Virus genome (UHGV): UHGV-0349585
Origin: a virus
Length of the DNA: 14,578 bases
Reading direction: 5' to 3' (one strand)
Within the stretch, counting starts at the first letter, position 1, and every line of letters begins with the position of its first letter. The notes below the pieces were generated by a model. It did no database searches and was not told where the DNA came from. It saw only the letters and a list, made by a program, of their open reading frames with translations. A program made the translations under genes and the position numbers. Shown piece after piece: positions 2,545 to 7,236 of this stretch.

Positions 2545-3371
2545 GCAATCCCCCTGTCTGCAAACTTCCCTTCCCGTACTCCCGTTAACGAATCTTCCCT
2601 CAGCAGGTAATCAAAATCTGCCGTCCAGCCCGTGTCGTTGTCTCCGAAGTAAAACGGCTTGGCCTGATGCACAAACGCCCTGACATACGCTCTGAAACCG
2701 TCCACGTTTGGCGTTTTCAGTTGCGGGATGATTTTCTTCAGGCGGCGTTTGCGTTTCTCGTTGACCGCAACAGCATGTGGAAGTCTGTCACCGACTTCGG
2801 TGTTGTAGGCGTTCAGGAAGGATTCGTAGTCGATTCGTTCTGCCTTGCGACGTTCAGGTTTAACCTGCCCATCGCCGCCCCCGTTAGGGGGTAAGGGGGT
2901 ATTTGTATTTATTGTCTTTTGTATATTGTCTTTTGTGTTTGACTGATTCGGTAAATTGCTTTTTACCGATTTGGTGAAGGTTTGTTTTACCGAATTGGTA
3001 AATGTTTTACCGAATCCGTTAACTTTCGTTTTCCACTCGGAAATGTTTGTATTCATACCAACTTGACGCCCCACCTGAATGAGAACTCCCATTCTGATAA
3101 GCTCGTTTTTGGCGGTAGAGCATTTGGTTGGTGCCATGCCAGTGAGTTCAGCGAACTGTTCGTTTCCGATCCAATCTATTTTTTTGTTGTAACCGTATGT
3201 CTTGCGCCACACAGCCATAACAATCAGTAACTGATGTAGAGTAAGTCCAGAAAGCATGGCGGCTTCTAACAGTGTGTTTGCAGTCCGAGTGTAGCCATCT
3301 TCGAGTTCTGCCACGCGATGCTCCACGACCTCCAGTTGAGGCCTGTAATCAGCTAACTTAACGACGCCCAT
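2541..3371 (-). CDS. Replication initiation protein, lambda O N-terminal-domain family, with iteron-encoded repeat segment
   Basis: 276 aa; [22 protein letters not shown] motif typical of phage O-like initiators; internal repeats [16 protein letters not shown] coincide with DNA iterons; AGGAG RBS before ATG at 3371. Confidence 0.8.
2898..3025. repeat. Origin of replication: iterons plus adjacent AT-rich tract inside the O-like gene
   Basis: TTTTACCGAAT core as three direct copies (about 2961, 2986, 3005) plus one inverted copy (2946-2955); AT-rich tract 2898-2940 with TGTCTTTTGT repeated. Confidence 0.65.
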
Positions 3372-3553: not shown

Positions 3554-3832
3554 TCAGGCCTCGAAGAATTCGCCGTTCTTCGGGGCTTTTTCTTTTGTCA
3601 GCATTCTGGCTACTTTCTTAGCCAGTTCCGCCAACTCCTCGTCTTCAACACCCCATTCAAGAACAGCCAGAAGCATTCCCATTTTTGGGATGAAGCTGTC
3701 TTTCCATCGCGAAATTTGCGATTCATTAATCCCTAACGCGTCGGCAACCTTTCGCTGACCACGTACAGCAATTCGATTCAGGATGTTGCTTGTAATTGCA
3801 TTCGCTTTCTTGCGAGTACTTGTAAGTTGCAT
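3554..3832 (-). CDS. cII: CII-like transcriptional activator (92 aa), diverged from lambda CII
   Basis: Conserved core ALGINESQISRWK...FIPKMGMLLAVLEWGV resembles lambda CII; ATG at 3832 preceded by the lambda-like leader CTAAGGAAATACTTACAT; ORF-track frame extends further upstream but this start has the RBS. Confidence 0.75.
   Translation of the reverse strand: MQLTSTRKKANAITSNILNRIAVRGQRKVADALGINESQISRWKDSFIPKMGMLLAVLEWGVEDEELAELAKKVARMLTKEKAPKNGEFFEA
3557..3596 (+). terminator. Strong intrinsic terminator on the strand antisense to cII, overlapping the cII 3' end (oop-RNA-like arrangement)
   Basis: About 11-bp stem GGCCTCGAAGAA/TTCTTCGGGGC with 7-nt loop, followed directly by TTTTTCTTTT on the plus strand. 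Confidence 0.55.
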
Positions 3833-3859
3833 ATGTAAGTATTTCCTTAGATAACAATT

Positions 3860-3900
3860 GATTGAATGTATGCAAATAAATGCATACACCATAGGTGTGG
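3860..3900 (-). terminator. tR1 region hairpin between nutR and cII
   Basis: Perfect 8-bp inverted repeat TGTATGCA/TGCATACA (3867-3888) plus adjacent CACC..GGTG palindrome; matches lambda tR1 region as I recall it. Confidence 0.5.
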
Positions 3901-3911
3901 TTTAATTTGAT

Positions 3912-3943
3912 GCCCTTTTTCAGGGCTGGAATGTGTAAGAGCG
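3912..3943 (-). promoter_or_regulatory. nutR (boxA and boxB)
   Basis: On minus strand: boxA CGCTCTTA (3943-3936) then boxB hairpin GCCCTGAAAAAGGGC (3926-3912), just after cro. Confidence 0.8.
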
Positions 3944-3950
3944 GGGTTAT

Positions 3951-4160
<210 letters not shown>

Positions 4161-4177
4161 TTAGTACATGCAACTAT

Positions 4178-4247
4178 TATCACCGCTAGAGGTAAAATAG
4201 TCAACACGCACGGTGTTAGATATTTATCCCTCGCGGTGATAGATTTA
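4178..4247. promoter_or_regulatory. OR1-OR2-OR3 operators with divergent pR (toward cro) and pRM (toward cI)
   Basis: 17-bp operators at 4178-4194 (OR1), 4202-4218 (OR2), 4225-4241 (OR3); pR -35 and -10 as AGTCAA and ATTATC on the plus strand; pRM -35 TAGATA (4217-4222) and -10 GATTTA (4242-4247); cI ATG at 4252 is leaderless. Confidence 0.85.
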
Positions 4248-4248
4248 A

Positions 4249-4965
<717 letters not shown>

Positions 4966-5264
4966 AGAGGATAGATGGAGTTTAATGGCCATGAGTATCA
5001 AGCGGTCAAAAAGAAGCTCATCTATTCATTGAAAGCATAAGGCCATCTGAGTATATCCGTAATGATCTGGATATTGTCTATAACATCAATGACCGGACGA
5101 TAGATATCGGTGAGCAGCGTCCTGTATGGCAGGGTGAGGCAGGTGAAAAAACGTCCTGCCATCAACAAGAATCAAGTGCATCCGCTCTCTGGACAGATGG
5201 AAAATTTATTGGATGCAAAAAGATATGAAATAACACCTGTATAGCACGGAGCTTTCTCTGACCG

Positions 5265-5660
5265 ATGCACTTGAAGTTGTTAGGGCTGACCCAGCCTGCT
5301 GTTTCTTTAGAGCTTGCCGAGCGATACATCAACGCAACTGAGCCGAAGCCTAGCGACAGCAGCATTACTGCATATAAAAGCCGCATGGAAAGTGCAATCA
5401 AAAAGTTTGTAGCTTTCCAGTCTGGTGAAGAAATCCCATACACTCCGATTGACAAAGAATCCAGTGAGGAAAAAGATTTGACTGGCGAACCAACAAAAGT
5501 CGAAGGCAAGGCTAATGCACTTCATACCTATGATCTTCCAGTAGTTCTTCGACCTGAATCAGGGGTTACAGTAACGATTAAAGGCATTCCTAACGATATC
5601 ACAAACGAAGAAGCCGAACGCATCTCTTCAATTCTGAAGGTTTACGTTCGGCCTCAATAA
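5265..5660 (+). CDS. Hypothetical protein (131 aa) in the slot occupied by rexA/rexB in lambda
   Basis: Longest ORF between cI and the timm-like terminator, co-oriented with cI; acidic and Lys-rich composition; weak RBS; two antisense ORFs overlap it, so coding status is uncertain. Confidence 0.35.
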   Translation: MHLKLLGLTQPAVSLELAERYINATEPKPSDSSITAYKSRMESAIKKFVAFQSGEEIPYTPIDKESSEEKDLTGEPTKVEGKANALHTYDLPVVLRPESGVTVTIKGIPNDITNEEAERISSILKVYVRPQ

Positions 5661-5833
5661 TGCAAAAGCATTCAGCACAATGTCCAACTCCCCAGTCCGA
5701 CATTGATGCTGTTTAACCAGAGCCTCCAAAAGGAGCCCTTGTTAAGGTACACAATATTTGCGATGTAACCTTAGCGCGTCTGGTACATTTTTTCAAGCGG
5801 TTGTAGGGCTGCCGCCAATATGAGAAAACACAG

Positions 5834-5956
5834 ATGTCTACATACAATTTGAATGACCAATTCGATCGAGAAGTTCATGTGAATGCCTATGAACGGATAA
5901 GGCATGGAAATCTTGAACATGTGTGTGAGCATTATCGCTCAAGGCCACACCGCTAA
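5834..5956 (+). CDS. Small hypothetical ORF (40 aa) immediately upstream of the timm-like terminator
   Basis: My own translation MSTYNLNDQFDREVHVNAYERIRHGNLEHVCEHYRSRPHR; weak GAGA-type RBS; ends 5 nt before the terminator stem. Confidence 0.2.
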   Translation: MSTYNLNDQFDREVHVNAYERIRHGNLEHVCEHYRSRPHR

Positions 5957-5961
5957 TCATC

Positions 5962-5990
5962 AACCCGGCCTCCATGCCGGGTTTTCTTTT
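5962..5990 (+). terminator. Intrinsic terminator ending the cI operon (timm-like)
   Basis: CCCGGC/GCCGGG stem (5964-5981) with 6-nt loop followed by TTTTCTTTT. Confidence 0.6.
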
Positions 5991-6140
5991 CCTCTCGCCC
6001 CAAAAAAAACGCATAACCAATTGTATTTATTTCAAAATTAATAGATACAACTCACTAAACATCGCAATTCAGATCTCTCGATCACCTTCCCAATCCACAC
6101 AACCCTGCAAAAAATAAATCTATATAAAAAACATACAGAT

Positions 6141-6203
6141 AACCATCTGCGGTGATAAATTATCTCTGGCGGTGTTGACATAAATACCACTGGCGGTGAT
6201 ACT
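6141..6203 (+). promoter_or_regulatory. OL3-OL2-OL1 operators and pL promoter
   Basis: 17-bp operators at 6141-6157, 6161-6177, 6185-6201; -35 TTGACA (6175-6180); -10 GATACT (6198-6203). Confidence 0.9.
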
Positions 6204-6242
6204 AAGCACATCAGCAGGACGCACTGACCACCATGAAGGTGA

Positions 6243-6273
6243 CGCTCTTAAAAATTAAGCCCTGAAGAAGGGC
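6243..6273 (+). promoter_or_regulatory. nutL (boxA and boxB)
   Basis: boxA CGCTCTTA (6243-6250); boxB hairpin GCCCTGAAGAAGGGC (6259-6273). Confidence 0.85.
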
Positions 6274-6430
6274 AGCATTCAAAGCAGAAGGCTTTGGTGT
6301 GTGTGATACGAAACGAAGCATTGGCCGGAAGTGCGAATCCGGATTAGCTGCCAATGTGCCATTGCGGGGTGTTTTCGTTCAGGACTACGACTCCCACACA
6401 CAACCAAAGCTAACTGACAGGAGAATCCAG

Positions 6431-6757
6431 ATGGATGCACAAACACGCCGCCGCGAACGTCGCGCAGAGAAACAGGCTCAATGGAAAGCAGCAAATCCCC
6501 TGTTGGTTGGGGTAAGCGCAAAACCAGTTAACCGCCCTATTCTCTCGCTGAATCGCAAACCGAAATCACGAGTAGAAAGCGCACTGAATCCGATAGACCT
6601 TACAGTGCTGGCTGAATACCACGAACAGATTGAAAGCAACCTGCAACGTATTGAGCGCAAGAATCAGCGCACATGGTACAGCAAGCCACGCAGTGAAATG
6701 GGTGTGACTTGTGTTGGTCGCCAGAAAATGAAATTAGGCAGCAAACCACTTATTTGA
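6431..6757 (+). CDS. N: N antitermination protein (108 aa), lambda-like with a divergent C-terminus
   Basis: MDAQTRRRERRAEKQAQWKAANPLLVGVSAKPVNRPILSLNRKPK... with Arg-rich N-terminal motif; AGGAG RBS before ATG at 6431; ORF-track frame 6299-6757 is an upstream extension into the leader. Confidence 0.9.
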   Translation: MDAQTRRRERRAEKQAQWKAANPLLVGVSAKPVNRPILSLNRKPKSRVESALNPIDLTVLAEYHEQIESNLQRIERKNQRTWYSKPRSEMGVTCVGRQKMKLGSKPLI

Positions 6758-6765
6758 GGTGAGAT

Positions 6766-7236
6766 ATGACAATATCATGGAGCGTACCTTTTCCTGAATC
6801 AGAAACTGAACATGATGGAATGCCTGTTTTCTGGAGATTCCAGGCGACAGTTGAAGAATATGGAATCAAAATATTCGCACTTCAATATATAGCTTTTCAT
6901 CAGACAGAGCATTATGCATGGTTGGTTCCTGCGCATTGGATTGTTAATTTTAAACCAGCACCAAATCAGTGGTTACAGGAATGGAAACAAAAGAGAAATA
7001 GATATGCAATTAAGAAAGTAGCAAAAAATGCAGAAAGATCTTTTGCATTCCCAACGAAGAAACTTGCCATTGAAAGTTTATTGCGCCGGAAGAAATACCA
7101 TTTAATGAGAATCAAACAAGATTTGGCTGTTGTATCAACTCTTGTTGATGGGATGAAGAATATTGATACATCAACACCAGATATTGAATATAACTTTGGA
7201 CACAACCAAGAAACAGAAAATTGGGTATTTTATTAG
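6766..7236 (+). CDS. Hypothetical protein (156 aa), AT-rich accessory gene directly downstream of N
   Basis: GAGGTGAG RBS then ATG 8 nt after N stop; visibly AT-rich versus neighbours (by eye); no motif I recognise; Trp/His-rich N-terminal half, Lys/Arg-rich middle. Confidence 0.7.
   Translation: MTISWSVPFPESETEHDGMPVFWRFQATVEEYGIKIFALQYIAFHQTEHYAWLVPAHWIVNFKPAPNQWLQEWKQKRNRYAIKKVAKNAERSFAFPTKKLAIESLLRRKKYHLMRIKQDLAVVSTLVDGMKNIDTSTPDIEYNFGHNQETENWVFY

Follow-up and report, generated by a model that had tools for sequence, protein, structure and literature searches.

We analysed a stretch of 14,578 nucleotides (nt) from the virus genome UHGV-0349585 (hereafter, the window), a mosaic lambdoid prophage whose orientation is opposite to that of the lambda map. 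The interval between its cI gene and a terminator of the lambda timm type (positions 4966-5990, the slot that holds rexA and rexB in lambda) contains, from left to right, a pseudogene, the junction of a 327-bp deletion, an intact structured RNA, an intact gene for a protein of 40 amino acids (aa) and the terminator itself. The explanation that we favor, at a probability of about 0.7, is that degraded slot DNA of the Shiga toxin (Stx) phages VT2-Sakai/Sp5 occupies the rex position of this prophage, and that the module which is intact in those phages works as an addiction-like regulatory circuit.

The Slot Is Stx Phage DNA with a 327-bp Deletion

The initial annotation of the window had considered the cargo of the slot unrecognised, but positions 4966-5990 match 44 phage records (VT2-Sakai, Nil2, and O157 Stx1/Stx2 phages) at 99.9%, and the same match was found in about 235 of 5426 complete Escherichia coli genomes. 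In phage records and genomes alike the match always consisted of two pieces, spanning 1353 bp. The corresponding interval of VT2-Sakai (AP000422, locus L001) is annotated with cI, H0093 (a hypothetical protein of 173 aa), H0092 (40 aa), and a terminator. Aligned to it, the window has a clean deletion of 327 bp with 1 nt of microhomology (table 1), outside which the two slots differ by a single-nucleotide polymorphism at 5017; positions 5310-5990 are identical base for base. The deletion took an intrinsic terminator (GGTCGCAGAGGTGCGGCC-T6; fold -15.9 kcal/mol, z -4.7), a sigma-70-like promoter (TCTTGCAT-17-TAAACT), the 5′ untranslated region (UTR) with the ribosome-binding site (RBS), the ATG, and codons 1-57 of H0093, a gene that is the same as ECs1184, Sp5 ORF23, and Nil2 ORF22 (phrog_2602).

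The intact form was present in all 44 matching phage records and in every E. coli genome match among those listed, and the exact junction was absent from the 5426 complete E. coli genomes, 50,697 phage records, the GTDB species representatives, and IMG/VR. The deletion allele is rare. It is also genuine and not an assembly artefact, because the exact 131-aa product that it encodes was called on four metagenome contigs from three samples, to which the window is 99.99-100% identical. The IMG/VR contig L028 combines the same lambda-type cro-cI region (98.4%) with the intact cassette, an arrangement that is likely to be the ancestral state. Locus L085 was considered as a second truncation at residue 58 and rejected, since it is a contig end plus a frameshift.

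Table 1. Features of the slot and its flanks (window coordinates)
Feature	Position	Strand	Remark
cI repressor, lambda type, 237 aa	4252-4965	+	Left slot boundary
DUF3024 pseudogene (113-aa protein; PADLOC candidate defence gene PDC-S43)	4975-5312	+	3′ bases clipped by the 327-bp deletion
131-aa open reading frame (ORF), chimera, judged a pseudogene	5265-5660	+	15 pseudogene codons plus ECs1184/H0093 codons 58-173
Deletion junction	5309-5311		Window 5310 joins L001 3345 to 3673; L001 3346-3672 lost
Conserved structured RNA, about 145 nt	5673-5815	+	Between ECs1184-family stop codon and small ORF
40-aa His/Cys-rich micro-protein gene, intact (VT2-Sakai H0092; phrog_21154)	5834-5956	+	Shine-Dalgarno (SD)-like GAGA at 5822-5825
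Intrinsic terminator homologous to lambda timm	5962-5990	+	Right slot boundary; hairpin plus U-run
pL with OL operators	6175-6203	+	TTGACA-17-GATACT; lambda homology

The 131-aa ORF Is a Deletion Artefact

The two ORFs of 131 and 40 aa lie where the initial annotation had placed them, while the pseudogene and the RNA had been passed over (table 1). The longer ORF, whose coding status the initial annotation had left uncertain, begins with 15 residues read from 5265-5309, out of frame, at the 3′ end of the DUF3024 pseudogene. The remainder (5310-5660) is 116 codons of ECs1184, which stand in frame with the upstream ATG because 327 is a multiple of 3, and residues 16-131 match phrog_2602 at profile positions 58-173 (E = 1.7e-64). 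The part that is kept comprises helix 4, the linker, and the C-terminal beta-hairpin/helix with its pattern P..R P..G...I.G.P.D.T..EAE.I.S.LK.Y. The N-terminal domain is incomplete: the invariant TARNL.NS motif (columns T28-S35; TARNLKNS core) is gone, and in the predicted structure of the truncated product the fold is lost, with two of the four N-domain helices kept. The ORF also lacks the family's own promoter, 5′ UTR, RBS, and upstream terminator. Its RBS had already been called weak, and indeed the GGAG 13 nt before the ATG is too distant for a good site. The ORF is an accidental in-frame fusion produced by the deletion and no native gene, and the truncated protein is presumably non-functional.

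These findings bear directly on the proposal that the two ORFs represent new, undamaged genes for superinfection exclusion or defence which pRM transcribes along with cI. The 40-aa ORF is a real gene (see below), and the classic placement for defence genes holds good in the sense that the position is a cargo hot spot, whose neighbouring variants contain the Stk kinase, DUF3024/PDC-S43, and a PDC-M63A-like pair. On the other hand, the 131-aa ORF is a deletion artefact without TARNLKNS core, RBS, or promoter, the matching records carry the intact form, the junction occurs in 0 of 5426 genomes, and PADLOC gave no match for either product or for full-length ECs1184. We therefore consider this proposal highly improbable, and for the 131-aa ORF it is already largely refuted.

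ECs1184 Belongs to a Widespread Family with Its Own Cassette

Close relatives of H0093 (44 in number) were found in E. coli, Salmonella, Cronobacter, Yersinia, Serratia, and Morganellaceae. A profile search returned 655 cluster representatives at E ≤ 1e-3, and nearly all of the 150 listed were full-length (157-208 aa). The dN/dS ratio of the family was 0.10-0.25. Proteins of the ECs1184 type consist of an N-terminal four-helix domain with a fold like the core-binding domain of tyrosine recombinases, a disordered linker, and a small beta-hairpin/helix domain. At every close locus examined, in five further genera and with any immunity type, the gene is found in the interval from an S24-type repressor to N, where some of these loci have an extra cargo gene as well. 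Distant members (33-46% identity) occupy other accessory sites of phages, including an Arc-like/antirepressor pair, tail-fibre genes, and the vicinity of a cytosine methylase.

Searches of Pfam, NCBIfam, and PADLOC with ECs1184 and 45 distant members gave only sub-threshold matches to integrase-SAM domains. There was no Phage_integrase match, and the full-length protein ends after a 40-residue beta-hairpin/helix, with no R-H-R-Y catalytic domain. No credible match was obtained in a profile search of PDB sequences and none at E ≤ 1e-3 in a fold search of BFVD, and a scan of GTDB for the locus gave a single one.

Upstream of the gene, seven divergent loci share a terminator hairpin with an invariant stem, a promoter (TCTTGC-17-TAnAAT), and a leader (GATC...CAATAACTTAGAGAGA). 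Because these upstream elements are conserved, the intact cassette would be a self-contained "moron" (terminator, promoter, gene, RNA, micro-protein gene, terminator) and not a mere passenger of pRM. The GATC of the leader is a Dam site that does not vary in the 5′ UTR of ECs1184-type genes, where it lies within TCGATCTG...CAATAACTTAGAGAGA (L001 3465-3500 and six further loci); it is deleted in the window.

Two publications concern ECs1184 itself. In a systematic deletion of Sp5 genes, deletions of ORF23/ECs1184 and ORF21/ECs1180 were not obtained, and loss of ECs1184 was judged lethal to the lysogen (Mondal et al. 2016; PMC5155283). In 2025, a pull-down of the RNA interactome of enterohaemorrhagic E. 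coli (EHEC) Sakai recovered ECs1184 at a false discovery rate of 0.065 (PMC7618764).

Following Mondal et al., ECs1184 could be seen as a lysogeny-maintenance factor, that is, a second repressor or anti-antirepressor acting on DNA that is dispensable under lambda-type immunity. This would agree with the failed deletion (PMC5155283), with the DNA-binding core-binding fold, which occurs in such repressors of SPbeta-like phages (8a0a MrpR, 9rd5 SroF), with the one distant homologue that adjoins an Arc-like/antirepressor pair, and with the occurrence of natural losses in lambda-cI backgrounds (the window and L087). Nevertheless, lambda-cI phages with an intact cassette exist (L028, L039), members of the family are found together with many unrelated repressors and also away from immunity regions, and the conserved RNA and micro-protein would be left unexplained. 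Such a role for ECs1184 seems unlikely to us.

An Unannotated Micro-Protein Gene Follows the Family

All 41 family loci surveyed have the same layout, in which the ECs1184-type gene is followed by about 150-175 nt and then by a small Cys/His-rich ORF. These small ORFs are of three types: type A (40-44 aa) with HVNAYER..GNLEHVCEHYRSRPH; type B (57-61 aa), which is arginine-rich and ends in ..LDAH.YGYKCWSFPVR; and type C (47 aa) with CxxC...CxC. The ORF of the window is of type A, with the intact motif and a position about 173 nt past the ECs1184-type stop codon. Its product matches phrog_21154 (E = 5e-8), and the SD-like GAGA lies 8 nt 5′ of its AUG. It is kept as an ORF of 40-44 aa in E. coli, Salmonella, Cronobacter, Yersinia, and one uncultured phage. 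Among the E. coli, Salmonella, Cronobacter, and Yersinia versions dN/dS was 0.05-0.13, in line with the purifying selection that the initial annotation had left to be checked. Variable sites by codon position were 9/5/24 of 40 each, with one in-frame indel of 9 nt. The substitution pattern thus indicates that the 40-aa ORF is a real gene under purifying selection. Neither the gene nor the structured RNA is annotated in any of the listed RefSeq genome records that cover this stretch, a protein search with the 40-aa peptide found three gene calls only, and the protein has no match in PADLOC, Pfam, or NCBIfam. The ECs1184-type gene can be intact where the small ORF is broken, as in L047.

The type of small ORF is not linked to the class of the preceding spacer RNA (described below): the zinc-ribbon-like type C stands behind both the long RNA and the short RNA (L042, L050, and L078 vs. 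L053, L013, L074, and L076). Micro-protein genes have thus been swapped behind a conserved unit of gene plus RNA.

The Spacer Encodes a Conserved Structured RNA

The 173-nt spacer (5661-5833) is 92-97% identical among relatives (82% in Yersinia), whereas the adjacent ECs1184 coding sequence is 77-82% identical and its third positions 60-70%. The z score of its minimum free energy fold was -2.9. The elements that we propose for the RNA are P1 (5673-5711), a long-range P2 (5716-5721/5779-5784), P2a (5726-5733), P3 (5743-5773), and P5 (5797-5815), with a pseudoknot between 5734-5739 and the P5 loop (5805-5810). Two single-stranded motifs, UAGCG (5772) and UCAAG (5793), are conserved and common to both spacer classes.

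We tested the fold in 32 spacers, 10 of a long class that includes the window and 22 of a short class. A pooled MAFFT alignment of 33 spacers had given no structure with RNAalifold because the two length classes misalign, and the classes were treated separately for this reason. In the MAFFT alignment of the 10 long spacers, 95% of cells were paired, compared with 26-45% with slid partners; nine pairs had changed on both sides, the observed score was reached by 0 of 500 shuffles, and the pseudoknot and P5 covary. The short class has analogous P1, P2, and P3 helices, paired at 88.9% (33-49% in slid controls), with 16 pairs changed on both sides and the long-range P2 paired at 99% across about 50 intervening bases. 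The strand test, in which G-U pairs are counted against A-C pairs, favored the plus strand in the long class (15 vs. 4); the short class gave 26 vs. 30. Such a covariation-supported structure directly upstream of the SD sequence and AUG would be expected of a cis-regulatory RNA.

No Rfam family reached the gathering threshold in the window or in seven loci representing all spacer classes, and at E ≤ 10 only sub-threshold matches anchored on the terminator appeared. The known prophage small RNAs of EHEC (AgvB/AsxR and the Pas small RNAs) were ruled out as candidates, since they are located in late regions, outside the slot.

The loop of P1 (window 5685-5698) is reverse-complemented between E. 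coli and Salmonella (CCAACTCCCCAGTCCG vs. CAGACTGGGGAGTTGG), and an independent loop inversion was seen in the short class, in spacers of the L057/L058 type (TTTGGCGA vs. TCGCCAAA). Inversion of a hairpin loop with its stem kept is thus recurrent.

It might be argued that 5661-5833 is conserved for a role at the DNA level (for example as a linker for recombination when cargo is exchanged, or as a promoter or operators) and not as RNA. The slot boundaries of L047, L086, and L087 do fall in or beside this segment, the loop inversions point to DNA events, and the strand test of the short class is ambiguous. But compensatory changes that keep a long-range helix 99% paired over about 50 bases, the covariation of pseudoknot and P5, and the 15 to 4 ratio of G-U to A-C pairs in the long class all speak for RNA, and we regard a purely DNA-level role as distinctly improbable.

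The Dead DUF3024 Gene and Other Cargo in the Rex Position

The first 340 bp or so of the slot are a dead copy of the gene vBEcoSP27_25, a 113-aa gene directly 3′ of cI in P27, an Stx phage of the 933W type. Positions 4975-5312 are 82% identical at the nucleotide level to positions 1-335 of this intact gene 25, and the reading frame is destroyed by 1-nt deletions at about 5007 and 5149 and by an in-frame TAA (5232-5234, from TGG). With a DUF3024 protein of Proteus as query, tblastn matched the window in two frames (E = 4e-6). The intact Proteus homologue, whose gene also lies directly after cI, matches PDC-S43 over its whole length (E = 4e-37). The copy in the window thus shows homology over the full 113 aa of the DUF3024/PDC-S43 family and has no open reading frame. 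VT2-Sakai carries the same dead copy. In E. coli O157:H7 PV15-279 (L003 2602-2763, equal to window 5067-5228), RefSeq has a 53-aa "hypothetical protein" (WP_434087148.1), which is one frame fragment of this pseudogene and covers positions 32-59 of 113 in phrog_3467.

Other phages carry different genes in this position. In the 933W-type slot, the order is cI, DUF3024, a 153-aa gene, the Stk kinase gene, a 54-aa gene, and N. Locus L087 (IMGVR_UViG_2703718791_000008, 1441-2945), with nearly the same lambda-type cI as the window, has a two-gene cargo consisting of a 192-aa DUF6932 protein (PADLOC PDC-M63A, E = 2e-10) and a 309-aa protein without family; this pair has replaced ECs1184 except for its last 19 codons, and the RNA and an intact 40-aa ORF are retained. 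In Salmonella and Yersinia prophages the repressor is separated from the ECs1184-type cassette by further cargo of 345 aa or of 141/160 aa (L017 2736-3773; L020 3348-3773; L021 3291-3773), for which Pfam and PADLOC gave no assignment. Taken together, these arrangements indicate that the rex position is a hot spot of cargo exchange bounded by the 3′ end of cI and the timm terminator.

The Flanks Are of Lambda Type

Along the window the genes and sites run P and O (minus strand), cII, cro, OR, cI (plus strand), the slot, OL/pL, and N. An identical cI gene in locus L006 has the HTH_3 and Peptidase_S24 domains. Positions 3830-4961 (cII-cro-OR-cI) correspond to lambda 38362-37231 at 98.1% nucleotide identity, and 5962-6687 to lambda 35826-35104 at 94%. 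Together with pR, which was found in addition to pL, these matches bear out the lambda-like flanks of the initial annotation. The homology stops at the cI stop codon and restarts at 5962, the first base past the rexB stop codon, so that 1.0 kb of unrelated DNA stands in place of the 1.4 kb of rexA-rexB. The hairpin at 5962-5990, placed correctly by the initial annotation, makes a good intrinsic terminator (8-bp stem with six G-C pairs, -14.3 kcal/mol, z -4.3), and its equivalent in VT2-Sakai (AP000422) is annotated as "rho-independent terminator for the pRM transcript." The slot was rightly described as the rexAB position with different cargo. Searches of the window and Sakai slots with RexA and RexB by tblastn gave chance matches only (E ≥ 2.8), and there was no DNA similarity in the slot to lambda 35827-37230 (rexAB). 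A decayed rex remnant is ruled out by these comparisons: the genes have been replaced and have not decayed.

The last 410 bp of cI (window 4555-4965 vs. VT2-Sakai 2590-3000) are 96.6% identical between the window and VT2-Sakai, although the Sp5 cI is otherwise different. This shared coding sequence of the cI C-terminal domain and the shared terminator probably served as recombination arms for the exchange of slot cargo. Right after N, the window has an ORF of 156 aa (6766-7236) without Pfam match, which also follows N in L087. The gene in this position in Sp5 is ECs1180 (83 aa), the other gene reported impossible to delete.

Discussion

For the intact module we propose, with moderate confidence, an addiction-like regulatory circuit. 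Transcription of the intact cassette would begin at the cassette promoter and end at the timm-type terminator, and the ECs1184-type protein would act as a nucleic-acid-binding regulator that restrains the micro-protein via the leader RNA or the cassette promoter. Under such a circuit ECs1184 should not be deletable in frame from Sp5, and its natural losses should have lost the promoter as well; in fact, both natural losses examined (the window and L087) remove the cassette promoter. L047, where the gene is intact and the small ORF broken, is the converse case, and the recovery of ECs1184 in the RNA-interactome pull-down would suit a nucleic-acid-binding regulator. In the window allele the RNA and the micro-protein gene would be transcribed only together with cI, by read-through from pRM, within whose reach they would have come because the internal terminator is deleted. 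Co-transcription with cI, which the initial annotation expected of anything in the slot, would thus apply to the RNA and the 40-aa gene of the window but not to the intact cassette, which has its own terminator and promoter. Considering that ECs1184 is reported to be undeletable in Sp5 lysogens, the window represents a natural knock-out allele in which the promoter was lost too.

Several observations weigh against this explanation. There is a weak terminator-like hairpin at 5283-5297. The micro-protein is hydrophilic, with no likeness to any known toxin, and the 173-nt spacer sets the module apart from classical type II toxin-antitoxin pairs. As to the RNA, the long-class structure was derived from the same 10 sequences that scored it, and the other structures were likewise scored on their own sequences; the strand test of the short class does not favor the plus strand; the short-class covariance model did not detect the spacer of the window (E = 0.41); and the case for homology of the two RNA classes lies in their common architecture and two short motifs. 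Technical causes, or a peculiarity of Sp5, could account for the failed deletion of ECs1184. Finally, ECs1184 gave background signal only in an RNA cross-link labelling assay (PMC7618764).

A related possibility is that the intact ECs1184-RNA-micro-protein module is an anti-phage system of the abortive-infection type, of which the window carries a disarmed copy. The core-binding-like protein would then serve as sensor or brake, with the micro-protein as effector. The moron organisation, the lysogen-expressed position, and the distant members at other phage accessory sites (tail fibre, Arc/antirepressor, methylase) would suit such a system, of which lethality on losing one component is also typical; yet no PADLOC, Pfam, or NCBIfam match and no enzymatic domain was found, and we doubt that this is its function.

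A broader reading is that the intact module represents a new three-part prophage system, in which a stand-alone integrase-core-binding-like protein is combined with a pseudoknotted leader RNA and with a Cys/His-rich micro-protein that can be exchanged. We put this forward only tentatively. If it holds, the RNA would be a switch that couples the protein to the micro-protein and thereby controls lysogen survival, prophage induction, or phage exclusion, and the window would be a natural "safe" knock-out, the protein being lost only together with the promoter. About 4% of the complete E. coli genomes carry the module, O157 Sakai among them. Our results also correct the main ORF of the window, which is a deletion artefact of a known but uncharacterised Stx phage gene, and they provide a natural loss-of-function allele of ECs1184, a gene on which stable lysogeny of the main O157 toxin phage is believed to depend. 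Moreover, they point to an unannotated 40-aa gene and an unannotated structured RNA of about 145 nt, which occur in 234 of the 5426 complete E. coli genomes and, as three versions that can replace one another, in prophages from six or more genera. The results also allow the slot to be understood as a site of cargo exchange between the 3′ end of cI and the timm terminator.

Among known systems, the closest is the slot of Sp5/VT2-Sakai. The window has the same upstream pseudogene, small ORF (H0092), and terminator, but it lacks 327 bp and is joined to the cI of lambda instead of that of Sp5. With lambda rexA-rexB, which is transcribed from pRM in lysogens (PMC3564112), the cargo of the window shares its place from the cI stop codon to the timm terminator; there is no sequence similarity, and the intact cassette, unlike rexAB, has its own terminator and promoter. 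The 933W-type slot contributes the likeness of the first element, an 82%-identical copy of its DUF3024 gene, but in the window this copy is dead and the kinase is absent. That kinase, Stk, is referred to as a documented abortive-infection gene in a passage of PMC3564112 citing Friedman 2011.

The N-terminal domain of ECs1184 has a fold related to the core-binding (SAM-like) domain of tyrosine recombinases and to SPbeta MrpR (8a0a) and phi3T SroF (9rd5). In contrast to the recombinases, ECs1184 has no catalytic domain, active or inactive, and its 173 aa end in an unrelated beta-hairpin/helix C-terminal domain. Morons are accessory cassettes of lambdoid phages with the order terminator, promoter, gene, terminator. 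Like morons and addiction modules, the cassette described here has terminators at its ends and a conserved promoter of its own, and loss of one of its genes has been reported as lethal. It does not have the features of a type II toxin-antitoxin system, since the spacer is structured and 150-175 nt long and no toxin or antitoxin match was found in Pfam, NCBIfam, or PADLOC. What sets it apart from morons and addiction modules is that it is three-part, with a structured RNA, and that no component resembles a known toxin or antitoxin.

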